This document shows positions 1-14,057 of a stretch of DNA of 64,000 bases, piece after piece. The notes beneath the pieces are model-generated. The model did no database searches and had not been told where the DNA came from. It saw only the letters and a program-made list of their open reading frames with translations. Origin of the DNA: an uncultured Planctomycetota bacterium (GTDB taxonomy: Bacteria > Planctomycetota > Planctomycetia > Isosphaerales > Isosphaeraceae); NCBI GenBank assembly GCA_963737655.1, contig CAVTTN010000002.1:64001-128000 (forward strand). The letters are read 5' to 3'. The translations under genes were made by a program, and so were the position numbers. Positions within the stretch are counted from its first letter, which is position 1, and each line of letters starts with the position of its first letter.

Positions 1-1227
1 CGGGGTCGGGCCCTCCTCCGGGGACGATCCAGCCGAACGGCGGCTCCTCGGTCCCCTTGCGGATCTGCTCTCGGCCCATCGCGAGGTAGTCTCGTTGAAA
101 TCGGTCCTTGTAGCGGGCGGCGAGGGTCAGGATCGACGAGCGCACACGTCTTTTCATACGCCTCGATGTCCGCCAGCCGCCACCATCCGCCCGGCCAGGG
201 ATCGACGAAGTTGACCGCCGGGCGATGGTCGGAAAAACCCCGGGTCGCGCCTCGCAACTGGTCCCGTTCGAGGAAGATCGGCGACGCCGAGCTTCACGCT
301 GGCCGCCTCCGTGAGCACGGCGACGATGTTGTGTCGCTGAGGGGTCGTCCGGTTGCCGCCGTTCCACCAGTTGTCGTACATCGCGTTAGTGAGCACGCCT
401 TTCTTGCCCTCGGAGGCCAGGTCCGCCGCCATGTGGGCGCCGATCACGGCGATCGACTGGTTGATCCGGGGGTCCAGGTTCGGGTTGATCGGGTCGTAGA
501 ATGGCGGGACGAACAATCGGGCGCCTCGGGAGCCCATCTGGTGGACGTCGTAGGCGAGCGTGGGGAACCATTCCTTGTAGAGCAGATGAGTGAGGAGCTG
601 CGTTTCCTTCAGATTGAGCATGAACCAGTCGCGATTGGTGTCGTGCCCGGCATACTTGTGATACAGCCGAGCCAGCCCCTCGCCTTCCCACGGCTTGCCC
701 TTGGTGCGGTCGTACCACTCGGCCACGATGTCCACGCCGTCGGGGTTGGCCGAGGGGACGAGGATCAGGATGGTCCTGTCGAGGATTTCGCGGGTGGCCG
801 GGTCGTCCTTCGAGGCGAGGTGGTGGAGCAAGTCCATCGCCATGAAGGTGGAGGCGGTCTCGGTCGAGTGGATCGAGCAGGTGATCAGGACCACGGCCTT
901 GCTCTGGGCGATCAGGGCCTCGTCGTCGGGTTGGGGCGACGCGGACGGATCGGCGATCCGCCTCTGAAGCTTCTGAACTCGGTCGAGGTCGGCGATCGTC
1001 GAGGGGCTGGAGACGATCGCGGCGAGATACGGGCGGCCCTCGGTGGTCGGGCCCAGCTCCCGGACGACCACGCGATCCGAGGCGTCATCGACCCGATGGA
1101 AGTACTCGACGACCTTCGGCCAGCGGACGAGCTGGAAGTCGGCCGGAGGAGGCGGCGAGGGGACGTCGGCGGCGAGGGCAGGGCAGGGGAGGAGGCAGGC
1201 GAGGAGGAATGGGGCGAAGCGGTTCAT
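1..1227 (-). CDS. Secreted M14-family zinc carboxypeptidase; runs off the window start; apparent +1 frameshift near 288
   Basis: Signal peptide MNRFAPFLLACLLPCPALA. M14 motifs are present: HSTE (HxxE), NPDG, GHDTNRDWF, DVHQMG and TEAAS. After SVKL the homologous-looking sequence continues in another frame (ASPIFLERDQL...DPWPGGWWRLADI) to position 1. Confidence 0.85.
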
Positions 1228-1370
1228 GAAGACGGTCCGATCGGGTCGAGGAAGCTCCGGGCGTCCCCCCCACCTTACCGCGACGGCCCGCCCGATCGAA
1301 GGGTTTGACCGCACCGGATCGATCCGTAAAATGGATGTGGACGTACCCATCCCCGAGGAAGGAGTCCTCC

Positions 1371-2642
1371 ATGATCGCCCTCCATCGCGACGGCCCCCGA
1401 ATCCTTGGCCCCTTGCCCGGCCCCCGGGCGTCGGAGTGGCTCGAACGGGATTCGGCCGTGATGTCGCCGTCGTACACCAGGACGTATCCGCTGGTCGTCC
1501 GCCGGGCCCGGGGGGCGATGGTCGAGGACCTCGACGGCAACCGCTTCCTGGACTTCACCGCCGGGATCGCCGTGACGAACGTGGGGCATTGCCATCCGCT
1601 CGTCACGGCCGCGATCCGAAGGCAGGCCGGGCGGCTCGTCCACATGTCGGGCACCGATTTCTATTACACGCCCCAGGTGAAGCTGGCCGAGACGCTCGCC
1701 CGGCTCGCCCCGGGGGACTCGCCCAAGCGGGTCTTCTTCACGAATAGCGGCGCGGAGGCGATCGAGGCGGCCCTGAAGCTCTCCCGGCACCACACCGGGC
1801 GGCCTCGGGCGATGGCGTTCCTCCGGGCGTTTCACGGGCGGACCTACGGCGCGATGGCCCTGAGCGCCTCCAAGCCGATCCATCGCCGGGGGTTCGCCCC
1901 GCTCGTGCCCGAGGTCCAGCACGCCCGCTACGGCGACCTGGAGAGCGTCCGGACCCTCCTCAAGACGACCTGCCCGCCGGATGAGCTCGCCGCCATCTTC
2001 GTCGAGCCGATCCAGGGCGAGGGCGGCTACATCGTCCCCCCGGACGATTTCTTGCCCGGGCTCCGGCGGATCTGCGACGAGATCGGCGCCTTGCTCGTCC
2101 TCGACGAGATCCAGTCGGGCATCGGCCGGACCGGCCGGATGTTCGCCTCGGAACACTGGAACGTGGCGGCCGACATCGTTTGCCTGGCCAAGGGGATCGC
2201 CAATGGATTGCCGCTCGGGGCGATCGTGGCGAGGGCCGACGTGATGGACTGGCCTCCGGGGAGCCACGCCTCCACGTTCGGAGGCAACCCCGTGGCCTGC
2301 TCCGCCGCCAACGCGACGCTCCGGCTGGTCGAGAACAAATACATGGCCAACGCCCAGGCCCGGGGCGAGCAGCTCCGAGCCGGCCTGAGACGGATCGCCG
2401 AGGGGCGGCCGATGGTCCGGGACGTCCGCGGGCTCGGGCTGATGGTCGGGATGGAGATCGGCACCGACGACGGGCCCGATCCCGCCCTCCGGGACCGGAT
2501 CATCGACCAGGCGTTCGGCCTCGGCCTCCTCCTGCTGCCCTGCGGGCCGAGCACGGTCCGGTTTTGCCCTCCCCTGTGTTTGACGGCCCGGCAGGTTGCC
2601 ATCGGGCTTGACCTCGTCGCCCAGGCCGTGGACCTCTCCTGA
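1371..2642 (+). CDS. Class III PLP-dependent aminotransferase (GabT/ArgD/lysine 6-aminotransferase-like)
   Basis: Motifs FLDFTAGIAV, NSGAEA, FHGRT, EPIQGEGG, DEIQSGIGRTG, LAKG (PLP lysine) and HASTFGGNP. GGAG RBS before the ATG at 1371. Confidence 0.92.
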   Translation: MIALHRDGPRILGPLPGPRASEWLERDSAVMSPSYTRTYPLVVRRARGAMVEDLDGNRFLDFTAGIAVTNVGHCHPLVTAAIRRQAGRLVHMSGTDFYYTPQVKLAETLARLAPGDSPKRVFFTNSGAEAIEAALKLSRHHTGRPRAMAFLRAFHGRTYGAMALSASKPIHRRGFAPLVPEVQHARYGDLESVRTLLKTTCPPDELAAIFVEPIQGEGGYIVPPDDFLPGLRRICDEIGALLVLDEIQSGIGRTGRMFASEHWNVAADIVCLAKGIANGLPLGAIVARADVMDWPPGSHASTFGGNPVACSAANATLRLVENKYMANAQARGEQLRAGLRRIAEGRPMVRDVRGLGLMVGMEIGTDDGPDPALRDRIIDQAFGLGLLLLPCGPSTVRFCPPLCLTARQVAIGLDLVAQAVDLS

Positions 2643-2664
2643 ACCACGGAAGGACGCCCGATCC

Positions 2665-4065
2665 ATGACCGCCATCGCCGAGACGCCGACGTTCGACTGG
2701 AAGCGATTCCCCGAGGCCGAGGCCCTGGTCGATTCGCTCCTCCGGACGGCCCTCGACGGCAACGACTTCCTCGCCTCGCTCTCGACGACGATGGCCGACC
2801 AGACCAGCACGAGGCTGGTGGATTGGGTCGATCACCTGGTCGTGACCGACCGGCCGGGCCTGAACCTTCGGGTGATGGATGCCGAGTTCGTCCGGGAGAA
2901 ACTCGCGTACACCCTCGGCGCGACGGTCTACGTCCACGACGGCGGGATGTTCCCGACGATCGTCGTGCAGTCGGGGTCCGGCCCCGAGGTCCGCGAGGTG
3001 GCGTTGAAGGTCGAGTCGATCGCCGAGTTTTCCCGGGCCCACGACCTGGGACTGCGGCCCGAGGGCTATCCTCTGGGGCCGTATCGGATCGCCCGGGTCG
3101 AGGGAGGCCCGACGGCGGTTTCCGTGGTCGAGAGGCGAGGCTATCGCGGGTTCGAGGCGTTCCCGGGCGACCTGGCGAGGGAAGGGCGGATGGCCCCTCA
3201 CGCCGCCCGGGAGGCCCTGGAAGCTCGCGACCTGTGGCTCGGCCGTCGCCGGGCGTTCGACGACGATCGGCAGGGCTTCGACGTCGCCGACTCGGCGCTC
3301 GATCGGATGATCGAACTGGTCGGGCCCGATCTCGCATGCCACCTGGTGTTCGAGGTCGAGAGGGCGTACTGGGAAAGCCGCAACCGGGCCGCCCGGGTCC
3401 AGAAAGCCCGCCAGGACCGCCTCGGCCTGGGCTGGGCCAACCACGACCACCACACCTTCCGCAGCTCCCGGCGGTTCTTCCCGCGATTGATCGCCATGTT
3501 CGAACGGCTCGGCTTCCTGCTCCGCGAACGCTACCACGCCGGCGCCCAGGCCGGCTGGGGCGCGCAGATCCTCGAGCATCCCCGGGCCGGGATCGTGATC
3601 TTCGCCGACCTCGACCTCGCCCCCGACGAGGCCGGGCACGACTTCGCCCACGACCCCTTGCCCGACCTGCCTCGGCCCAACACCGTGGGCCTCTGGGTCG
3701 GCCTTCATGGCGAATCGATCCTCGGGGCCGGGATGCATCACCTGGAAGCGCAGTTCGATTTCGACGCCCTCCGCGACGACTTGCAGGCGGAAGCCGGCAT
3801 CGAGACCATGAAGCCGTTCTCCGACTTCCCGTTCCTCCGCCAGGCGTTCACCGCCGGGGAGCGCTGGCCCGTGGACCCGAAGCGGGCCGATCGATTGTTC
3901 CAGCTCGGGTGGATCGACGAGGCCCAGCACGCCCGGTTCCTGGCCGAAGGGGCGATCGGGAGCCACCTGGAAAACCTGCAACGAGCCGAGGGCTACAAGG
4001 GGTTCAATCAGAAATCCGTGAGCGCGATCCTCCGGGCCACGGACCCCCGAGCCGTCGACCATTGA
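2665..4065 (+). CDS. Uncharacterised VOC-superfamily metalloenzyme (HglS/DUF1338- or HPPD-like C-terminal half)
   Basis: 466-aa ORF 22 bp downstream of the aminotransferase. Motifs NHDHHTFRS, GMHHLE and HLENLQR...GFNQKSVSAI resemble the His/His/Glu triad and C-terminal helix of VOC Fe(II) dioxygenases. Confidence 0.7.
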   Translation: MTAIAETPTFDWKRFPEAEALVDSLLRTALDGNDFLASLSTTMADQTSTRLVDWVDHLVVTDRPGLNLRVMDAEFVREKLAYTLGATVYVHDGGMFPTIVVQSGSGPEVREVALKVESIAEFSRAHDLGLRPEGYPLGPYRIARVEGGPTAVSVVERRGYRGFEAFPGDLAREGRMAPHAAREALEARDLWLGRRRAFDDDRQGFDVADSALDRMIELVGPDLACHLVFEVERAYWESRNRAARVQKARQDRLGLGWANHDHHTFRSSRRFFPRLIAMFERLGFLLRERYHAGAQAGWGAQILEHPRAGIVIFADLDLAPDEAGHDFAHDPLPDLPRPNTVGLWVGLHGESILGAGMHHLEAQFDFDALRDDLQAEAGIETMKPFSDFPFLRQAFTAGERWPVDPKRADRLFQLGWIDEAQHARFLAEGAIGSHLENLQRAEGYKGFNQKSVSAILRATDPRAVDH

Positions 4066-4174
4066 GGGCCACGGACGGAACTCGCGCCGCCCGGGACGAG
4101 TCCAAGGAGCGGCCCGGAGGCCCGATCGCGGCGCTTCGAGACGCCGGGCCCTCCCCGTCCCGTCCCTGGGGAAC

Positions 4175-4202
4175 TTGACAAGGAAGGAGGGCGGGGTAAG
4201 CT
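4175..4202 (+). promoter_or_regulatory. Putative sigma70-type promoter
   Basis: TTGACA (4175-4180), 16-bp spacer, then TAAGCT, upstream of the 4345 gene. Confidence 0.45.
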
Positions 4203-4344
4203 CTTGGAAGACCTTTTCTCGGGCGGGTGGTCCGTGGTCCTTCATGCCGCCTCGCCGTTTCGCATCCACGACGACCCGTTTTCCCGGACCGGCCCGAGCT
4301 TCCGAGACGGCCCGATCCCGGGGATTAATGGAAGGTCCGAGCTT

Positions 4345-5828
4345 ATGTTGAAGGCGATCTCCCCGCGACGTCCTCGCGGACTCTCGTGGGTCGTCCTGGC
4401 GATCGTCGGCCTGGCCGTGGTCGCGATGGCGACCCGGCGATCTTCCGCCCAGGATGCCCCGCCGAAGGGGAGTTCGGCCGGCTCGTCCGGATCGGCCAAG
4501 GGAGACGAGAAGCGCAAGGACGACGCCGAGACTCCCGAGGTCGCCAAGAAGGCCGACGTCCACGCCAAGGAATCCCCCGAGTCCCAGGACCGCTACGAGG
4601 ATCCCCGGGCCGAGGCCGCCCTCAAGAACAACTTCCCCGAGATGACCGGCTCCGCCGCGTCCCTGAGCGCCGCCGACCGCGCCGCCATCGAGGCGATGGC
4701 CGAGGGCAAGGGCAACGTGGACCTCGGCGCGATCGATCGCTACGTCCGCGCCTACACCGCCGAGCTGACCAAGCGCGCCAACATCAAGGCCCTGGAAGAC
4801 ATCGGGGCAGGCAACGCCAACGCCGTCAAGGCGATGGACCTCGCCTCCTCGGCGCTGATCAAGCCGCTCGTGCCCGAGGTGACCGGGCGGAATACGAACT
4901 TCCGGAACCGGTACGTCGGCAAGCTGATCGAGGTGTTCTCCAAGCTCTGGAAGGCGAACTACTTCACCCGGACGTTCGCCATGACCGTCCTCAGCCGGTC
5001 GGGCGACCCCCAGGCGATGCGGGTCTTCTCCGATCAGTTGAACGACCCGGACCAGGTCCTGATCGTCAAGCAGCTCGCGGCCGTGGGGATCCTCTTCTCG
5101 ACCCAGGAGGGCCGCAAGAGCGTCGACAGCCGGGACTCGATCGGCGGCGCCAAGGCGCTGGCGGACTTCCTGGAACGAGAGACCGACGCCTTCTGGCTGA
5201 CCAAGGCCCGGGCCCTCCGCGCCTGGGCTCGCTCCGCATGGCCACGGCCGTCCCCCTGGGCAACAAGGCCGAGTTCGCCGACACGGCCATGAAATTCCTG
5301 GTCGATGGCAAGCTCCCGCCCGACGTCCGGTCGGCGGCGGCCTGGGCCCTGGGCATGATGGTCGTGCCGAACTCCGTGAGGGACTTCAATTACCCCCTGG
5401 TCGCCTATGCCGCCGGGCTGGCCGCGGCGGACCTCGGCGATCGGATCATCGCGGTCCCGGACAAGGCGATCCTCCGGGTCACGAGGCTGACCGAGCTCCT
5501 GATCCAGATCCATCTGGCCTTCAACGGCCAGCCGGGCGTCCGCGAATCCGGCCTCCTGCACCAGGCCAATCCCGCCGCGGCGTCCGCCCAGGGGTACGTG
5601 GCCGAGGTGGAGAAGCGCGTCCGGGCCCTGACTCGCGCCTCGCTCGCCCTCGGGCAGACCGTCGGGACGAACATCCCCAAGGCCCGCAAGGAGGTCGTCG
5701 CGGCCGTGGATGATCTCCGGTCGTTCCTCGCGAAGCCCCCGACCGGAGCCCGGACTCTCTACTCCGGCGGCCCGGAATCCCCCGAGCCGACGTTGCCGGC
5801 AAAGGTCGCCCCCAGTGCCCGCCCCTGA
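4345..5828 (+). CDS. Exported/membrane-anchored HEAT-repeat-like hypothetical protein; apparent frameshift at ~5222
   Basis: N-terminal hydrophobic segment and helical repeats (AMTVLSRSGDP, RSAAAWALGMM). Adding one C in gcctgg joins the two ORFs to read RALRALGSLRMA. Confidence 0.7.
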
Positions 5829-5856
5829 TCGCCCGGACCGCGCCGGCCCGGCCATC

Positions 5857-6696
5857 GTGCCCGTCCCGGAGGTCCGCGATTACGACCGGATCAATCCGGA
5901 GCTGATCGCGCTCCTGAACTCCGGGGCCGACCACGTCCGGCTTGCCGGAGTCGGCGGCCAGAGGCTCCTCCTGGCCGGCTTGCGAGGGACCTGGGTGGCG
6001 ACCGTGGAGGTCGAAGGGGACGCCGGGCCCGAACTCGCGGCCGAACTCGACGCGCCCGGCCTCCTCGTGATCGTCTCCGGCTCGACCGCGGACGGGGCAG
6101 GGCGGGGCCTGCGAGACAGCCGGTTGCTGATCCTGGGAGACGCCGGCCCCGCCGTCGGATCGGGTCAAACCGGAGGGACGATCGTCGTCGCCGGACGGAC
6201 CTCGGATCGCGCCGGCCTCCGCCAGGCCGGCGGAATCCTGGTCCTCGGAGGCCCGGTCGGGCGATTGGCCGGCGAACGGCAGGGCGGAGGGCGGCTGATC
6301 CACCGCCCCGGTTCGCTCGGCCCCGATGCCGGACTCGGCCGATCGGGCGGTCGTGCCCTGACGCCTCCGAGGCTCGACGGCCAGGACGCGGCGATCCTCG
6401 ACGAGGCCGTCGGCCCCCTCGATCCCTGGCTCCCGGACTCCCTCCGATCACTCCTGGGCGCTCGCCCCGGCCCGATCCGGGGGCCGGGCCATGAACCGAT
6501 TCGGACGATGGGCGGCCCTGGTCGTCGTGCCGTGGCTCGCCGGATGCGGACGCGCCTTCGGGCCCGAGCCGATGAGGACCGCCACGATCTCCGGCCGGGT
6601 CCTGATCGACGGCAAGCCCCTGACCCGGGGCTGGCTGGAGATGATGCCGGCCGACGGCACGATCGGCCTCCTCCGCTCCGCCCCGATCGGGCGTGA
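5857..6696 (+). CDS. Stand-alone GXGXG beta-helix protein (glutamate synthase large-subunit C-terminal domain / FwdC-like); true 3' end uncertain
   Basis: Repeated Gly-rich beta-helix units (VEGDAGPELAA, ILGDAGPAVG, GGTIVVAG, GGILVLGG). The ORF runs ~200 bp into the next gene, so the real stop may be near 6480. Confidence 0.7.
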   Translation: MPVPEVRDYDRINPELIALLNSGADHVRLAGVGGQRLLLAGLRGTWVATVEVEGDAGPELAAELDAPGLLVIVSGSTADGAGRGLRDSRLLILGDAGPAVGSGQTGGTIVVAGRTSDRAGLRQAGGILVLGGPVGRLAGERQGGGRLIHRPGSLGPDAGLGRSGGRALTPPRLDGQDAAILDEAVGPLDPWLPDSLRSLLGARPGPIRGPGHEPIRTMGGPGRRAVARRMRTRLRARADEDRHDLRPGPDRRQAPDPGLAGDDAGRRHDRPPPLRPDRA

Positions 6697-6916: not shown

Positions 6917-6940
6917 GTGGAGACTCCCCGGAGGCCCGCG

Positions 6941-7981
6941 ATGGCGACCGCCGAGACCACGGAACTCGCCGCCGAGTCGGTCGGGCCCCGATTCCGCGTC
7001 TTTCATCGGTCGGCCGACGGCACGATCGATCCCCTCTGGCCCGTGGATCGGATCGGCGAGGCGATCGCCGATCCAGGGGCCACCGTCTGGATCGACATCG
7101 ACGGGCCCGAGGCGGACGTCCCCCGAGTCGAGGCCCTGTTCCGGGACGTCTTCGCCTTCCACCCCCTGGCGATCGAGGACGCCATCCGGGAAACCCACGT
7201 CCCGAAGCTGGATGACTGGGGCCGCTACCTCTACCTGGTCTTCAAGGCGATCGACCCCGGTCCCGAGGCCGGCGAGCCGGTCCTCCGGGAACTCGACGTC
7301 TTCCTCGGGACCAACTATCTCGTGACCTGCCACTCGGGCCCGATCGAGGCCATCGAGAGCGTGACCCGCCAGGTCGGCCGCGACCCCGACCGCTTCTCCC
7401 GGGGGCCGGACCACGTCCTCTATCACATCCTCGACGAATCGGTGGACGCGTACCTGACGGCCATCGAGCGGCTGGACGAGGCGATCGACGAGGCCCAGGA
7501 GGAAGTCTTCAACCAGCCCTCGCCCCGGACCCTCCAGACGATCTTCGCCGTGAAGAGGGCCGCCCTCAAGATCCACCGGATGATCTCGCCGACCCGCGAG
7601 GTCGTCAACCGGCTCGCCCGGGACGCCTATTCGCAGATCGACGCCCCGGACCGCGTCTATTTCCGGGACGTCTACGATCACCTGGTCCGGCTCCACGACA
7701 TCACCGAGGGCCTCCGCGACCTGATCTCCGGGGCCCTGGATACCTACCTGTCGGCGATCTCGAACCGGACCAACGAGATCATGAAGACGCTGACTCTCGT
7801 GACGGTCATGTTCCTGCCGATGTCGTTCCTGGCGGGGTTCTTCGGGATGAACTTCTTCGGGGAGAACCTCGCCCTGCCCGGATCGCTGCCGAGAGGCGCG
7901 GTGTTCTGGGGATCGTGCCTGCTGATGCTCGCGACGCCTCCCGGCCTGTGGATCTGGGCCCGGCGACGGGGCTGGTTCTGA
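6941..7981 (+). CDS. corA: Magnesium/cobalt transporter CorA
   Basis: FHPLAIED, PKLD, YFRDVYDHL, NEIMKTLT and the GMN signature (FFGMNF), with two C-terminal TM helices. Confidence 0.95.
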   Translation: MATAETTELAAESVGPRFRVFHRSADGTIDPLWPVDRIGEAIADPGATVWIDIDGPEADVPRVEALFRDVFAFHPLAIEDAIRETHVPKLDDWGRYLYLVFKAIDPGPEAGEPVLRELDVFLGTNYLVTCHSGPIEAIESVTRQVGRDPDRFSRGPDHVLYHILDESVDAYLTAIERLDEAIDEAQEEVFNQPSPRTLQTIFAVKRAALKIHRMISPTREVVNRLARDAYSQIDAPDRVYFRDVYDHLVRLHDITEGLRDLISGALDTYLSAISNRTNEIMKTLTLVTVMFLPMSFLAGFFGMNFFGENLALPGSLPRGAVFWGSCLLMLATPPGLWIWARRRGWF

Positions 7982-8090
7982 CCGGGCCCGGTCGGGTCCG
8001 AAACCCGCGGTCCGGCCGATCTCGGGGTAGAATGGATCGATCTCCGTTTTTGGCCCGCCCCGGGGCCGCCCCCTTCCTCGGAGGTCGCAG

Positions 8091-9857
8091 TTGACCGCGT
8101 CCTGGCGAGTCCTCCCCCACGATCGGGACCGCGTCGAGGCCCTGAGCCGGGCGGCCGGGGTGCCTCCTCTCGTGGCGATCCTCCTGATCCACCGGGGCGT
8201 GACGGACGCGGAGTCCGCCCGGGTCTTCCTCGGGGCCCGGAGGGACAGCCTGCACGATCCGGCCCTCCTGCCCGGGGCGGTCGAGGCGGCCGAAAGGATC
8301 GTCCGGGCGATCCGGGACGGCCGGAAGATCGTGATCTATGGCGATTATGACGTCGATGGCGTCTGCGGGACGAGCGTCCTCTGGGCCTGCCTGAAGCTGG
8401 CCGGCGCGAGGGACGTCGAGTATTACATCCCCCACCGGGTCGAGGAGGGATACGGCGTCAATTCCCGGGCGATCCGCCATCTCGTCGAGGAGAGGCGGGC
8501 CGGCTTGATCGTCACGGTCGATTGCGGGATCACGGCCGTCGAGGAAGCCCTTCTGGCCCGCGAGCTCGGCGTCGAATTGATCGTGACCGACCACCACACC
8601 CCGGGCTCGACCTGGCCCGAGGCCGATGCCCTGGTCCATCCGCTCGCGCCGGGCGCGGCGTACCCGTTCCCGGAGCTTTGCGGGGCGGGCGTGGCGTTCA
8701 AGCTGGCGTGGCAGGTGTGCAAGTCGTTCGGCGACGGCAAGAAGGCGTCGCCCCACCTCCGGGATTTCCTCCTCCGGGCGATCAACCTCGTGGCGCTGGC
8801 CACCGTCGCCGACATGGTGCCGCTCGAAGGCGAAAACCGGATCTTCGTCCGCCACGGCCTCAAGGGGATCGCCGTCGATGATTCGGTCGGCCTGAAGGCG
8901 CTGCTCCAGGTCTCGGGCCTCCTGGGCAAGGACCGTTTGAACTCCGGCAACGTGGCGTTCGCCCTGGGCCCGCGGATCAACGCGGCGGGTCGGCTCCAGT
9001 ATGCGATGAAGGCGGTCGAGCTGCTGACGACCGACGACGCCTCCGAGGCGATGGAGATCGCCCGGGTCCTGGACGACTGCAACCGCGAGCGCCAGGACGT
9101 GGAGCGCACGATCGTCGTCGAGGCGAAGGCGATGGTGGAAGAATCCGGCGGCCTGGGCGATCGCGGCGCGGTCGTCGTCGGCAAGGCGGGCTGGCATCCC
9201 GGGGTGATCGGGATCGTGGCGTCCCGCCTCGTCGAGACCTACCACCGCCCGGCGATCGTCGTGGCGATCGGCGAGGAGATCGGCCAGGGTTCGGCCCGAT
9301 CGGTCCCGGGCTTCCACCTGTACGACGCCCTGAAGGCCTGCTCCGACGGCCTGGCGTCGTTCGGAGGCCACCGGATGGCCGCCGGCCTGAAGATCGCTCC
9401 GGGGTTCCTCGCCGAATTCGCCGACCGCTTCGACCGGCACTGCCGATCCGCCCTGACTCCCGAGCTCCGGCGCAAGGAATTGCTCATCGACGCGGAAATC
9501 CCGTTCGGAAGCTTGACGCTGCCGGTCGTCGAGGCGCTGGAAGACCTGGAGCCGTTCGGCATCGGCAACGCGAGGCCGCTCTTGCTCGCCTCCGACGCCC
9601 GGCTCGTGGGCGACCCCAGGGTCATGGGCGAGAAGAAGAACCACCTCCAGCTGAGGATCGCGCAGGGAGAGACCACCATCCGGGCGGTCTGGTGGAATGG
9701 AGCGGCGAAGGCCGAAGGGTACAAGGCCGGCATGCCCTGTGCTGTGGTGTTCACGCCGAGCGTGAACGAATGGAACGGCCGCCGCGAAGTCCAGCTCGAA
9801 GTCAAGGACTTCCAGGCCCGGGATGGCCGGGAGCTTCCCCATGCCCGCCCCGCCTGA
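8091..9857 (+). CDS. recJ: Single-stranded-DNA-specific exonuclease RecJ
   Basis: DHH family motifs GDYDVDG, TVDCG, TDHH, ATVADMVPL, PRINAAGR, GSARS, GGHRMAAG and EPFGIGN. Confidence 0.96.
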   Translation: MTASWRVLPHDRDRVEALSRAAGVPPLVAILLIHRGVTDAESARVFLGARRDSLHDPALLPGAVEAAERIVRAIRDGRKIVIYGDYDVDGVCGTSVLWACLKLAGARDVEYYIPHRVEEGYGVNSRAIRHLVEERRAGLIVTVDCGITAVEEALLARELGVELIVTDHHTPGSTWPEADALVHPLAPGAAYPFPELCGAGVAFKLAWQVCKSFGDGKKASPHLRDFLLRAINLVALATVADMVPLEGENRIFVRHGLKGIAVDDSVGLKALLQVSGLLGKDRLNSGNVAFALGPRINAAGRLQYAMKAVELLTTDDASEAMEIARVLDDCNRERQDVERTIVVEAKAMVEESGGLGDRGAVVVGKAGWHPGVIGIVASRLVETYHRPAIVVAIGEEIGQGSARSVPGFHLYDALKACSDGLASFGGHRMAAGLKIAPGFLAEFADRFDRHCRSALTPELRRKELLIDAEIPFGSLTLPVVEALEDLEPFGIGNARPLLLASDARLVGDPRVMGEKKNHLQLRIAQGETTIRAVWWNGAAKAEGYKAGMPCAVVFTPSVNEWNGRREVQLEVKDFQARDGRELPHARPA

Positions 9858-10491
9858 TCCGTCTCCGGGAGCCGAGATCGCCCGACAGGTCCGGGACCGG
9901 GGCGTGACCAACGCCCGGGTCCTCTCCGCGATCGCCCGGTTCGATCGCAGTCGGTTCATCCCGCCCGAATCGCGGTCCGAGGCCCTGGCCGATCGCGCCG
10001 TGCCGATCGGGATGGACCAGACCATCAGCCAGCCGTTCATGGTCGGCAAGATGACCGAGGAGCTGGACCTCCGGCCGACCGACCGCGTCCTGGAAGTCGG
10101 CACGGGCAGCGGCTATCAGGCGGCGATCCTCTCGGCGATGGCCCGGGAGGTCGTCACGATCGAGAGGCTGACGACCCTTTCGCTCCGGGCCCGGTCGATC
10201 CTGGACGGCCTGGGGATCACCAACGTCCGATTCGCGATCGGGGACGGCTCGCTCGGCCTGCCGGAGTTCGCCCCGTATGACCGAATCCTCGTCACGGCCG
10301 GGGCGCCGGGGATTCCGGCGGCCCTGTTCGAACAACTCGCCGATGGCGGCCGGCTCGTCGCGCCGATCGGCGACGAGCACACCCAGCAACTCACCGTCGT
10401 CCGCAAGAAGAAGGGGAAGCCCCTGATTCGCACCTTCTTCCCCTGCCGGTTCGTCAAGCTGATCGGCGAGGAAGCGTGGCCGGAGCCTTGA
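9841..10491 (+). CDS. pcm: Protein-L-isoaspartate O-methyltransferase
   Basis: QTISQP, VLEVGTGSGYQAA, GDGSLG, APYDRILVTA and RFVKLIG; overlaps the recJ end. Confidence 0.95.
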   Translation: MPAPPDPSPGAEIARQVRDRGVTNARVLSAIARFDRSRFIPPESRSEALADRAVPIGMDQTISQPFMVGKMTEELDLRPTDRVLEVGTGSGYQAAILSAMAREVVTIERLTTLSLRARSILDGLGITNVRFAIGDGSLGLPEFAPYDRILVTAGAPGIPAALFEQLADGGRLVAPIGDEHTQQLTVVRKKKGKPLIRTFFPCRFVKLIGEEAWPEP

Positions 10492-10501
10492 GCCGAGCGG
10501 A

Positions 10502-11791
10502 TCACGATTGGTGGACGTTCTGCGGTCGAGACGATGGAGTGGCCCTCTCGGCCGGATCGCTCCGCCAGCCGGCGACCGCCCGGATCGAACCTCGGGCCCG
10601 GGAGAGCCACGACGCGAGCCGCCAGGCCGAGCTCGCCCGGATCGATCGGAGCTGGGTCTCCGCCGATTCGAGCCGGTCCCAGAGGTGCTGGGAGACCCTC
10701 TCTCTGGCATCGAGTTCCGCCCGGAGGACCCGGCGGTCTTCCTGATCGGCCTGCTCGCGATCCCCGATCCTCCAGATCGTTTCGAGGTGCTGCTCGCGGA
10801 GTGCCCGGAGGTCGTTGGCGGCCTGGAGGGCGAGGTCCTCGGCGACGGCGAGCCGGCCTTCGAGAGCGGCGATCGTCGCCTCCCGGTCGTCGAGGTCGGC
10901 CCGGGCCCGTTCGAGGCTCCGATCCCTCTCGTGAACCGTCGAGGCGGCGATCCGGGTCTGGTCCCGGCTGGCCGCCAGCTCGGTTCGGAGGGCCGAGATC
11001 GCCGAATCCGTCTCGGCGAGGGCCGCGGCGGAGAGGGCCGCCTGGTTCTCCATCGCGCCGATCCGGGCCACGCCCTCGGCGACCCGGCGATCCGCCTCGA
11101 TCAGGAGGTTCTGGTGCTCGACGAGCGATTCGCGGGCCCCGAGGTTGTCCTGCCAGAGCTTCCAGAACCGCCGCTCGTAGGCCGCGACGACCCGGGGGAT
11201 CGGGTCTCGGGCCTTGCGGAACCGGGTGGCCCATCGCGTGATGAAGCTGGCGTCGAAGTCCACGTCGCGGAAGAACCCGTGGCGGGCGAACAGCTCCGCC
11301 CAGTACTCCGGGGGCTGGACGTTGAAGTGGCTCGCTTCCTTGTAGTCGAACGGGGTGGACGAGAAGACGATGTCGTCGGCCAGGGCGCAGAAGTTGGCGA
11401 TGGCGGCCTCGGCCTGCTCGGGCGGGAGATGCTCCAGGACCTCGATGGTCACCAGGAGGTCGAATCGCTCGTCGGGCAGGGGGTCGGTGATCGAGTGGAC
11501 CCGGCAGAACGGGCGGATTCGTTCGTGGGCCCGGGAGATCGCGTATTCGGAGATGTCGATCCCGAAGGCCGCGACGTCGCGATCGCGGAGGCTCTCGACG
11601 AGGATGCCCATCGCGCATCCGGCGTCTAGGACGGTCCGGGGCGCGATGTCGCGGACGATCCTCTCGGCGATCCCTCCGAAGAAGGCCATCCAGTGGGGGT
11701 CTCGGCCGTAGGGAAGGCCGCAGCAGTGCTCGAAGTAGTAGGCGCCGTAATGGCACGGTTCGGCGTCCCGTCGTTCCCCGTCGTCGTCCAT
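10502..11791 (-). CDS. Class I SAM methyltransferase with long C-terminal coiled coil (glycan-capping, WbdD-like architecture)
   Basis: VLDAGCAMG, GIDISEYA and EVLEHL, followed by ~190 aa of heptad-rich sequence ending in SSAWRL. Confidence 0.8.
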   Translation of the reverse strand: MDDDGERRDAEPCHYGAYYFEHCCGLPYGRDPHWMAFFGGIAERIVRDIAPRTVLDAGCAMGILVESLRDRDVAAFGIDISEYAISRAHERIRPFCRVHSITDPLPDERFDLLVTIEVLEHLPPEQAEAAIANFCALADDIVFSSTPFDYKEASHFNVQPPEYWAELFARHGFFRDVDFDASFITRWATRFRKARDPIPRVVAAYERRFWKLWQDNLGARESLVEHQNLLIEADRRVAEGVARIGAMENQAALSAAALAETDSAISALRTELAASRDQTRIAASTVHERDRSLERARADLDDREATIAALEGRLAVAEDLALQAANDLRALREQHLETIWRIGDREQADQEDRRVLRAELDARERVSQHLWDRLESAETQLRSIRASSAWRLASWLSRARGSIRAVAGWRSDPAERATPSSRPQNVHQS

Positions 11792-11978
11792 GACCCTGGC
11801 CTCGCTCGGTCCTTCGCGGATAGGCGGTTCGCAAGGTTGGGCCAGGGGGGCCGCCCTTCCTCGCCATCGATGGCCCTCCGGGCGGGGTCCGTGCCCCGGT
11901 GGAATGGCGATCATCGGCTTGTTTCCTGGTATCGGTCGGGCCCACGGGGGCCCTTTGGCCGGGCGAGCGGCGGACTGC

Positions 11979-14057
11979 TCAATGATCGCGGGTCGCCCGC
12001 GACCGGCCGAAGAGGCGGGGCCGATAGATCGCGCCTGCGTGATCGGCCTGGCCGGGCGCCTGCCCCCGGAGCCTCTTCATCCCGGCCCAGGAACCCAGGA
12101 CGGCGAGCTTCGCCGCCCGGTGGATCGGCCCGAGCCGCTTCAGGCCCGAATTGAGCTTGTCCGCCACCTTGTAGCGGACCGGCTTCGGCGGGAGCGGCAG
12201 CACCACCGGGACCTCGATGATCTGTGGGGGAGGCGCCGGGGGAGCCGGGAGCGCCGGGGCCAGCATCGGCCAGAGGTGGTCCATCGAATGGCTCAGGTAG
12301 CGGACCCTCCAGTACGCGAAGGTCTTGCCGTGCCTCTCGTGGAGGGCCGCCAGCTCGGGCTCCTCGTGGCAATATCCCCGAGACTTCCCCTCGTGATGGA
12401 TGCCCATCAACGTCCCGAAGTAGTAATTGCGATACCCCGCCTCCAGGGCCCGGGCGCACATGTCCACGTCCCCGTAGCCGTTCGGGAAGATCACTTCCTC
12501 CAGGCCGCCGAGTTCCAGGAAGGTCTCTCGCCGGGTCATGGCGCAGGCGAAGGTGACCCCGAAGACCGCGTGCTCGTCGTGGACGAACTCCCGTTGCGTC
12601 CGGGCGTAGCCCATCAGGTTGTAGCCGGACCCGCCGATGAGCTCCAGGATGCGGATCCCTCCGTGCTGGATCTCCCGGCCGTCGGGATAGACGAGCTTGA
12701 TCCCGACGTGCCCGGCGGTCCGGTCGGCCAGGAGCTGCATGGCCATCGTCTGGAGGGCGTCCGGGCTGCGGATCTCGACGTCGTTGTTGAGGAACAGGAG
12801 GAGGTCCTTGCCGTCTCCCCGCTCCGCGATCGCCCGATTGTGGAGCCTGGCGTAGTTGAACGGTCCGTCGTGGGGGAGGATCTCGTAGGAGTTCTTCCGG
12901 GGTTTCTCCAGCCAGGCTTCCAGGGCGGAAATGGTCCCGGGTTCGCTCGATCGATTGTCGATCAGGGCCACGAAGACGTCGAGCTCGTGCCTCTGGGATT
13001 CGAGCGATTCGAGGCACTTGAGGGTCATCGCCGGCTGGTCCTTGAACGGGACCATGATCATCAGCGAAGGCCGTTCCCGGCCCTCGATCGACCTCAGGCG
13101 GATGTTCAGGTGGACCTCGCCCTTCCTGGCCGCCGGCAGGGAGAACTGCGCCCGGGCGTTGGGGTAGGCCAGGGGGACCATCTCGTCCAGGAGCCAGCTT
13201 TGACGCTGGGGGACCTCGGGCTTGGCGTCGAGCGACGAGGAGCAGCTGGTGGGCGTGGCCCTCCAGTAATAGAGGAACAGGGGGACATGGACCGGCCGGA
13301 CCTGGCCGGTCAGGGCGACCCGGAGGTACAGGTCATGGTCCTCGACGCCGTCATACTCGGAGCGGAACACCCGGCCGTCGGAGCGCGCGGCCATGACCAG
13401 ATCGCGGCGGATGGCCGTGAAATGGCAGACGTAATTCACCCGGAGGAGCGTGAAGAGGTCGAACGGAGGCTTGGTGATGAACCCGTACACCCGGGTGGTG
13501 GCGTCGTCGAGCTGGGCCTCGTTGGAGAAGACCAGGTTGGTGTCGGGCTTCGCCGAGATCTGCCGGGCGTAGGTGCTCAGGGCCATCGGGTGGAGCAGGT
13601 CGTCGTGGTCGAGGATGCAGAGGAAGTCGCCGATCGACTGCTCGATGGCGTCGTTCCGGGCGCCGCCGATCCCGACGTTCTCCTCGCGGAGGTAGAGCTT
13701 GATCCGGGAGTCCCGATTGGCCCATTCCCGGGCGACCTCGAAGTGGTCCTGCCTCGGGCTGCCGTCGTCCAGGAGGATCAGCTCCCAGCCGGGATACGCC
13801 TGGAGGCGGACCGAGAGGATCAGCTCCCGGAGGAGCCTGGGCGGCGTGTTGTACATCGGGGTGATCAGCGAGAAGAGCGGGCGGACGGGCAGCTCGGCCA
13901 CCCGGGCGGCCTCGCCTCGCAAGGCCCGGATCAATAGCTGGGGGTCCTGAGGGCCGGCATCGATGACCCACGGGACCGACCGGAGGAAGCGGGTCTCTTC
14001 CGTCTCCACGGTCACCGTGCCGAGGTAATCGCCGACCGGATCGAGGCTCCGGGCCAT
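11979..14057 (-). CDS. Bi-domain family 2 glycosyltransferase
   Basis: First GT2 domain: FSLITPMYN, LDDGS, ARNDAI, LDHDD, EDHDL. Second GT2 domain: IDNRS, FNYARLHN, FLNNDVE, GDVDMC. Confidence 0.9.
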   Translation of the reverse strand: MARSLDPVGDYLGTVTVETEETRFLRSVPWVIDAGPQDPQLLIRALRGEAARVAELPVRPLFSLITPMYNTPPRLLRELILSVRLQAYPGWELILLDDGSPRQDHFEVAREWANRDSRIKLYLREENVGIGGARNDAIEQSIGDFLCILDHDDLLHPMALSTYARQISAKPDTNLVFSNEAQLDDATTRVYGFITKPPFDLFTLLRVNYVCHFTAIRRDLVMAARSDGRVFRSEYDGVEDHDLYLRVALTGQVRPVHVPLFLYYWRATPTSCSSSLDAKPEVPQRQSWLLDEMVPLAYPNARAQFSLPAARKGEVHLNIRLRSIEGRERPSLMIMVPFKDQPAMTLKCLESLESQRHELDVFVALIDNRSSEPGTISALEAWLEKPRKNSYEILPHDGPFNYARLHNRAIAERGDGKDLLLFLNNDVEIRSPDALQTMAMQLLADRTAGHVGIKLVYPDGREIQHGGIRILELIGGSGYNLMGYARTQREFVHDEHAVFGVTFACAMTRRETFLELGGLEEVIFPNGYGDVDMCARALEAGYRNYYFGTLMGIHHEGKSRGYCHEEPELAALHERHGKTFAYWRVRYLSHSMDHLWPMLAPALPAPPAPPPQIIEVPVVLPLPPKPVRYKVADKLNSGLKRLGPIHRAAKLAVLGSWAGMKRLRGQAPGQADHAGAIYRPRLFGRSRATRDH

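Follow-up and report, generated by a model that had tools for sequence, protein, structure and literature searches.

Hydroxymandelate synthase (HMS) and 4-hydroxyphenylpyruvate dioxygenase (HPPD) are two-domain proteins belonging to the vicinal oxygen chelate (VOC) superfamily that carry a His-His-Glu Fe(II) site in their C-terminal domain. A second set of 2-oxoacid oxygenases, used here as the main comparison, comprises hydroxyglutarate synthase (HglS), YdcJ and rice FLO7 of the DUF1338 family (PF07063, HGLS; structures 6w1k, 6w1g, 3lho, 3iuz and 2rjb). According to one report, HglS binds its metal through His70, His226 and Glu294 and the far carboxylate through Arg74; the R74A variant has no activity, and of seven 2-oxoacids offered the enzyme converted 2-oxoadipate alone (10.1101/2020.01.30.927905). 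Here, we describe a gene pair in a window of 64,000 nucleotides (positions 64,001 to 128,000 of contig CAVTTN010000002.1) from an uncultured Planctomycetota bacterium of the family Isosphaeraceae; coordinates below refer to this window. The pair consists of a class III aminotransferase gene and, downstream of it, an unannotated gene for a 466-aa protein. By analogy with HglS, the 466-aa protein probably converts 2-oxoadipate and O2 into D-2-hydroxyglutarate and CO2, a reading to which we assign a probability of about 0.75, and the pair most likely provides the enzymes for the opening step and for one late step of lysine degradation. The main features are as follows.

1371-2642, + strand: class III pyridoxal phosphate (PLP) aminotransferase of the PRK05769 type, probable lysine/ornithine omega-aminotransferase, 423 aa (open reading frame (ORF), profile matches)
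2643-2664: intergenic gap of 22 bp between the aminotransferase gene and the 466-aa gene
2665-4065, + strand: unannotated tandem-HglS-fold metalloenzyme, 466 aa, probable 2-oxoadipate dioxygenase/decarboxylase (ORF, fold, homologues)
2686-3159, + strand: N-terminal degenerate HglS-fold copy, residues ~8-165 (hhalign, separate model, VIA)
3307-4062, + strand: C-terminal, putatively catalytic HglS-fold domain, residues ~215-466 (VIA match to 6w1k, hhalign)
3448-3462, + strand: H262, predicted first metal ligand, and R266 at His+4, predicted distal-carboxylate binder (conservation, hhalign)
3739-3741, + strand: H359, predicted second metal ligand (from motif and strand register)
3970-3972, + strand: E436, predicted third metal ligand, in E-x-x-x-R440 (conservation, hhalign)

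The original prediction, made from the sequence alone, had already placed the aminotransferase gene, the gap and the 466-aa ORF at these positions, and it had proposed a VOC fold close to HglS, which structure comparison bears out. The aminotransferase matches PF00202 at E 2e-119. The model of the 466-aa protein had a predicted local distance difference test score (pLDDT) of 94.4 and a predicted template-modelling score (pTM) of 0.94. A VIA search of 48,161 chains returned three DUF1338 proteins at the top, 6w1k (Z 16.5), 3iuz (16.3) and 3lho (15.5). The rice hydroxyglutarate synthase 6w1k aligned with model residues 215-466 over 216 residues at a root-mean-square deviation (rmsd) of 3.5, and 3lho over 193 residues at 2.9. 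The DUF1338 matches spanned Z 15.5-16.7 and the HPPD/HMS matches 12.3-13.0, with Pseudomonas putida HglS (6w1g) at 12.2, HMS at 12.3, and glyoxalases and epimerases at 8.7 or less. With Z of 12-13, HMS and HPPD (2r5v, 3zgj, 3isq, 1cjx) share the predicted chemistry class of the protein, and they also headed the Foldseek matches (E 1e-11 to 1e-8), HglS not being among the matches listed. The Foldseek result, together with the two-domain VOC architecture of both enzymes, would speak for an HPPD or HMS acting on an aromatic 2-oxoacid. However, the Foldseek matches had a TM score of ~0.25 and an rmsd of ~20, and their pointer to HPPD is corrected by the wide VIA search, which put DUF1338 first both with the complete model and with the N-terminal domain by itself. 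Both domains resemble DUF1338 more closely. The protein had no Pfam or NCBIfam match and no PDB match by sequence or by profile, none of the 87 aligned family members matched any Pfam family at E<=0.01, and the typed neighbours were of lysine type and included no aromatic-catabolism gene. An aromatic substrate is therefore extremely unlikely.

The protein had also been predicted to consist of two modules. Two modules are indeed present, but they are two whole copies of the HglS fold, and only the C-terminal copy keeps the ligands, whereas HglS has a single copy. Modelled alone, the N-terminal domain matched 3iuz and 3lho (both Z 11.5) and 6w1k (Z 10.2), the next match being at 7.3, and it spanned nearly whole DUF1338 chains (3lho 0-253: Z 11.5, rmsd 3.4, 149 aligned residues). 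Against a profile of 13-17 DUF1338 proteins from sampled genomes, hhalign gave a probability of 92 for the N-terminal domain (E 5.3e-7) and a global probability of 92 for the C-terminal domain (E 6.9e-8), and with the whole profile only the N-terminal match was found. A direct hhalign comparison of the two domains was not significant (probability 6), so the duplication claim rests on each half matching DUF1338. With DUF1338 as the best match of the isolated N-terminal domain too, these models are best read as showing an HglS fold duplicated in tandem, with one intact site.

The motifs noted beforehand, NHDHHTFRS (3439-3465), GMHHLE (3730-3747), HLENLQR (3964-3984) and GFNQKSVSAILRAT (4000-4041), are all present, and the proposed His-His-Glu triad holds at the sequence level. 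In alignment A1, 87 rows obtained from sequence searches with no motif filter, H262 was conserved in 85/87, R266 in 81/87, H359 in 82/87 and E436 in 79 of the 83 ungapped rows. As this alignment was free of a motif filter, the conservation indicates that the motifs exceed chance. The 12 of 87 rows that departed from the full residue set comprised three fragments and nine distant or poorly aligned sequences. All four residues were kept in 128/128 locus rows (108 distinct loci and 20 refetches), a count that is partly circular because 80 were found by patterns holding the His motifs. D261-H262-x-x-x-R266 and E436-x-x-x-R440 were aligned by hhalign with the corresponding DUF1338 motifs, and the three putative ligands all lie on predicted strands (260-266, 359-363 and 430-440). 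The choice of H359 over H358 follows the register of the strand relative to the NHFT motif of DUF1338. The family thus shares with HglS the fold and the D-H-x-x-x-R, second His, E-x-x-x-R and terminal GF...I...TD motifs. Unlike HglS, it has five extra residues between a conserved Trp and the second His, as well as additional conserved His (H263, H348, H358 and H434), Trp and Arg residues. The N-terminal copy retains D56-H57 and E156-R157 (H57 in 106/128 rows, E156 in 124/128), lacks the Arg at His+4, and mostly has Ala at the second-His position (A113, mapped by motif).

The substrate, left unnamed by the original prediction, becomes predictable because R266 at His+4 matches Arg74 of HglS. In the proposed mechanism, an Fe(II) ion bound to H262, H359 and E436 would chelate the 2-oxoacid end of 2-oxoadipate, R266 would grip its far carboxylate, and O2 would drive decarboxylation and hydroxylation to D-2-hydroxyglutarate and CO2. 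A flavoenzyme of the YdiJ/GlcD type, encoded elsewhere in the genome, could then oxidise D-2-hydroxyglutarate to 2-oxoglutarate. The N-terminal copy would be non-catalytic and probably structural.

The 466-aa gene is real, as 7129 of 8000 scored candidates were homologous at E<=0.001; these are clusters at 90% identity, and the number is a lower bound. In addition, 807 of 1.84 billion 50%-representatives matched the family. All named members examined were annotated as hypothetical or uncharacterized; a cultured strain, Singulisphaera acidiphila, has the orthologue WP_015249348.1. The best 80 loci came from Planctomycetota, Verrucomicrobiota, Chlamydiota, Ignavibacteriota and a few other groups, and the closest named relatives were Isosphaeraceae. 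Within the host's family (Isosphaeraceae-like), the gene was present in 78/81 genomes and is near-core; it occurred in 29/301 genomes of the host's phylum and in 5/201 genomes of the phylum of G381, with G381 itself counted. The protein is a structural homologue of HglS and not a member of PF07063, since it carries two fold copies and misses the Pfam gathering cut-off (25 bits), with PF07063 unmatched in 87/87 family members at E<=0.01. Literature searches, whose coverage was thin for subscription journals, yielded no description of the family; supplementary tables of the DUF1338 preprint could list remote members. Two own-family genomes, G363 (L196, 8286-12365) and G353 (L197/L198), have a divergent copy that shares only 48% identity with the one usual in the family, together with a lysine-dehydrogenase-like gene and pcd (the gene for piperideine-6-carboxylate dehydrogenase, Pcd), suggesting replacement of the module by transfer. 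Two loci, L053 (labelled Bifidobacterium) and L047 (labelled Kuenenia), had labels at odds with their neighbours and tree position and are probably mislabelled or misbinned; their copies grouped with Verrucomicrobiota and Isosphaeraceae-like rows in a quick tree of 75 rows, from which most Isosphaeraceae rows were excluded and in which the proteins were trimmed to the last 470 residues.

The lysine-catabolic context anticipated for the gene was supported by part of a survey of 38 distant loci. At least one lysine-catabolic gene lay within 8 kb in 19 of them, with pcd in 17, a lysine/saccharopine-dehydrogenase-like gene in 7, lat (lysine 6-aminotransferase) in 6 and a ydiJ-like gene (D-2-hydroxyglutarate dehydrogenase type) in 3. 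Typing of example loci placed Lat in 1/2 and Pcd in 4/4 cases above cut-off and the ydiJ-like genes below it. The lysine-dehydrogenase-like protein was closest to PH1688 (3abi), which we take to be a lysine 6-dehydrogenase. In Verrucomicrobiota and other Planctomycetota, the position next to the family gene is taken by Lat (TIGR03251) and lysine 6-dehydrogenase, and pcd was adjacent to 4/4 randomly drawn Verrucomicrobiota family genes. Lysine-catabolism neighbours are likewise reported for DUF1338 in 10.1101/450254, and some bacteria oxidise lysine directly by the lysine-dehydrogenase route, as stated in PMC7253579. A linked aldehyde dehydrogenase had also been expected; Pcd is present in the host genome, G000 (C2:2305389; score 752.9, cut-off 730), but 2.2 Mb away and outside the operon. 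The YdiJ-like and GlcD-like genes of this genome scored below cut-off, and no PF07063 match was found in it, with E. coli positive as control. Across genomes the two HglS forms did not coincide: 29 of the 301 phylum genomes had the 466-aa family, 25 had PF07063 and none had both, with corresponding counts of 5, 3 and 0 in the 201 genomes of the phylum of G381. Among the 81 own-family genomes, 78 had the 466-aa family and none had PF07063. Short, true DUF1338 genes were found near an aldehyde dehydrogenase gene in the Planctomycetia loci L143 (7444-15315), L145, L146, L149, L151 and L153; the L143 enzyme was typed as astD, and four of these loci also have a class III aminotransferase gene. The eight PF07063-positive genomes of family f2 had no Pcd match.

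The aminotransferase has the PLP lysine motif CLAKG (K274) and scored 558.4 bits with NF004426 (PRK05769), above the cut-off of 552, as did two orthologues (578.7 and 562.7). With the 2-aminoadipate transaminase model NF049976 it scored 288.2 (cut-off 650). The L-lysine 6-transaminase model TIGR03251 (cut-off 520.8) was not among its best 25 families, and it is only 30% identical to a true Lat. At E<=1e-80, TIGR03251 matched nothing in G000 or in 41 own-family genomes, a search in which no control genome was positive, though the model scored L059. The best PDB sequence match was 7vno (E 2.8e-98), presumably PH1423 of Pyrococcus horikoshii. Its Thermococcus counterpart TK2101 is described as required for proline supply. 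Both enzymes act on L-ornithine and L-lysine, and TK2101 also takes 2-oxoadipate as amino acceptor, according to PMC9986279. Unlike PH1423 and TK2101, the enzyme here is bacterial, is coupled to an HglS-like gene and co-occurs with Pcd.

The expected linkage of the two genes was seen only in the host's family; in other lineages the partner of the family gene is Lat, a lysine-dehydrogenase-like gene, Pcd, YdiJ or a class I aminotransferase. The aminotransferase gene adjoined the family gene in 30/42 close loci (four of the misses have <200 bases upstream), and in 29 of the 32 genomes with its orthologue no more than 300 bp separated the two genes. Among 41 own-family genomes, 27 had the aminotransferase and Pcd, 5 the aminotransferase only, 1 Pcd only and 8 neither (Fisher p 1e-4, kin not being independent). 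A lysine-dehydrogenase domain was found in 2/41. The aminotransferase orthologue is missing from the genome with Pcd only, G353, and from its congener G363, and in both a lysine-dehydrogenase-like gene adjoins pcd. Because the orthologue tracks Pcd and is swapped, in the genomes checked, for a lysine-dehydrogenase-like gene, the PRK05769 aminotransferase is probably a lysine 6-aminotransferase. It would take the 6-amino group off lysine to give aminoadipate semialdehyde/1-piperideine-6-carboxylate (P6C) for the unlinked Pcd, and may also interconvert 2-aminoadipate and 2-oxoadipate. The oxygenase had been placed downstream of the aminotransferase; more probably the latter acts two steps upstream and does not directly supply the oxygenase substrate.

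For this first gene alone, a biosynthetic ArgD or an ornithine aminotransferase was also considered, with the linkage to the oxygenase as inherited synteny without shared flux. The score with the ArgD model TIGR00707, 386.7, comes near the cut-off of 410 (410.05). In addition, G000 has argC, which is split into two frames (G000:C2:2649957-2650960), and only three PF00202 genes, namely the pair aminotransferase, BioA and HemL, with no separate ArgD. However, a separate ArgD above cut-off (scores 449-463) was found in 5/5 near-complete relatives, which lowers the case for an ArgD role, and the assembly of G000 is 87.7% complete. Given also the association with Pcd and the exchange for a lysine-dehydrogenase-like gene, this alternative is unlikely, and lysine 6-transamination is preferred.

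Several findings weigh against the HglS-like, lysine-catabolic reading. The 466-aa protein is only 14-17% identical to the HglS structures, local hhalign of the C-terminal domain was weak (probability 2-41), and the second His came into register in no mode. The mutual exclusion with PF07063 is weak when taken alone (p 0.07 overall, 0.017 within family f2). Of the 29 phylum-sample genomes with the family, only 7 gave a Pcd match and 22 gave none; in the anammox family f30, none of the 23 genomes gave one, and 111 of 129 Pcd-positive genomes had neither HglS form. Six of the eight own-family genomes without aminotransferase and Pcd still hold the 466-aa gene; in two of these six its immediate neighbour is the peptidase gene found next to the aminotransferase gene in other genomes. 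A relative, L054, adjoins arginine succinyltransferase genes (ast cluster). With no separate ArgD in G000, the aminotransferase may serve arginine synthesis there. Furthermore, an O2-using enzyme is unexpected in anammox bacteria.

Part of this evidence would fit the same Fe(II)/O2 chemistry on other or wider dicarboxylic 2-oxoacids, such as 2-oxopimelate, 2-oxoglutarate or an arginine/ornithine-derived keto acid, in amino-acid turnover or metabolite clean-up. The retention of the family gene in genomes without Pcd, the ornithine/lysine enzyme as the closest solved relative of the aminotransferase, the ast neighbours of L054, a class I aminotransferase gene upstream of several anammox copies and the frequency of peptidase genes as neighbours all point this way. 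Against it, lat, pcd, lysine-dehydrogenase-like and ydiJ-like genes are repeatedly found as neighbours across phyla, and HglS, with its Arg74, was selective for 2-oxoadipate in the report cited above. The ast/astD context does not discriminate, because the true DUF1338 gene in L143 shares it. A wider substrate range is rather unlikely, and 2-oxoadipate remains the preferred substrate.

The anammox copies deserve separate treatment. Seventeen of the 29 family-positive phylum genomes belong to families f30 (12/23, one as fragments only) and f75 (5), which are anammox bacteria as judged from hydrazine synthase alpha, found in 5/5 tested f30/f75 genomes and matched to 5c2v in 2/2. Full-length copies occur in 11 f30 and 5 f75 genomes, all of which lack PF07063, and keep all four residues including R266. 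In the tree, the copies of either anammox family cluster in a supported group of their own, and a single anammox origin is neither shown nor excluded. A class I aminotransferase (PRK06836 type) is encoded directly upstream in 7 of the 11 full-length f30 loci, and a GlcD-like oxidase downstream of the family gene in the anammox genome G300. This gene order would fit a route from 2-aminoadipate through 2-oxoadipate and 2-hydroxyglutarate to 2-oxoglutarate. A survey of four anammox genomes and G318 found general aldehyde dehydrogenases. Family-gene fragments, some with stop codons, were seen in anammox-family genomes (G228:C44:19435-25029 and G049:C5:1852169-1852521) and are probably decaying copies.

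Intact copies in anaerobes would be explained by an O2-independent VOC metalloenzyme (an isomerase, epimerase, lyase or decarboxylase) on the HglS scaffold. The intact ligands and R266, the separate supported groups and the additional conserved His residues of the family are consistent with such an enzyme. Nevertheless, the fold is nearest to the O2-using HglS, HMS and HPPD and well above glyoxalases and epimerases in Z, a hydroxyacid oxidase gene follows the family gene in G300, and anammox bacteria do encounter and reduce O2, their inhibition being reversible according to PMC10156729. O2-independent chemistry is accordingly very unlikely. More speculatively, and with a low likelihood, the tandem-HglS enzyme of anammox bacteria and other anaerobes may not feed on lysine at all. 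It could act as an O2-triggered 2-oxoacid sink, forming with the upstream class I aminotransferase and a downstream hydroxyacid dehydrogenase a cycle in which O2 is consumed and 2-oxoglutarate regained. Alternatively, it could catalyse an O2-free 2-oxoadipate step. The ligand-less N-terminal copy, with its invariant E156-R157 and R194-x-R196, could then be a sensing domain that gates activity.

If the HglS-like reading is correct, thousands of hypothetical proteins would gain a function, among them that of the Isosphaeraceae-like near-core gene and those of Verrucomicrobiota, environmental Chlamydiota, Ignavibacteriota and anammox bacteria. Where Pfam detects no HglS, lysine catabolism would gain its missing 2-oxoadipate step, the duplicated architecture would join a small group of two-substrate 2-oxoacid oxygenases, and the bacterial PRK05769 aminotransferase would be a third entry into the P6C route. 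The predicted chemistry itself is already known. The contributions of this locus are the near-core standing of the gene among the host's relatives in its family, the argument that a PRK05769 aminotransferase probably acts on lysine, and the copies in anammox bacteria, whose retention raises the directly testable question of O2 use by anaerobes.

Apart from the genes themselves, the following sites were recognised around the pair.

1305-1332, + strand: sigma-70-like promoter match TTGACC-16-TAAAAT, 5' of the gene pair (consensus match only)
1359-1364, + strand: AAGGAG resembling a ribosome-binding site (RBS), 6 nt ahead of the ATG at 1371 (sequence)
2648-2654, + strand: RBS-like GGAAGGA inside the 22-bp gap (sequence)
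4175-4202, + strand: weaker promoter-like site TTGACA-16-TAAGCT ahead of the next gene (read from sequence, below scan threshold)

The upstream promoter-like site was the single match in a scan of 1100-4500, compared with a mean of 0.1 in 50 shuffles, and a scan for a terminator-like site 3' of the pair found none. Taken as consensus matches, the upstream promoter-like site, the RBS-like sites ahead of both genes and the weaker promoter-like site in front of the following gene suggest that the pair forms its own two-gene unit. The G+C fraction at third codon positions (GC3) is 0.92 for the aminotransferase gene and 0.89 for the 466-aa gene. Both genes are intact, and frameshifts were found in the neighbouring genes. 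Divergent from the pair lies an M14 zinc carboxypeptidase-like gene (1-1227, - strand), in which comparison with an 883-aa homologue shows frameshifts near 287 and near 150-185, probably caused by assembly indels. Downstream, a conserved unannotated planctomycete protein of ~480 aa (4345-5828, + strand) is split by a frameshift near 5223, and its synteny with the 466-aa family gene recurs in many relatives. It is followed by a GXGXG-motif protein (5710-6696, + strand; PF01493, FwdC/glutamate-synthase-domain-like), whose position is likewise conserved in relatives. The region 6917-14057 holds ordinary neighbours, including a CorA transporter and, as judged by eye, a methyltransferase, a glycosyltransferase, a RecJ-like exonuclease (8091-9857) and a protein-L-isoaspartate methyltransferase (9823-10491).

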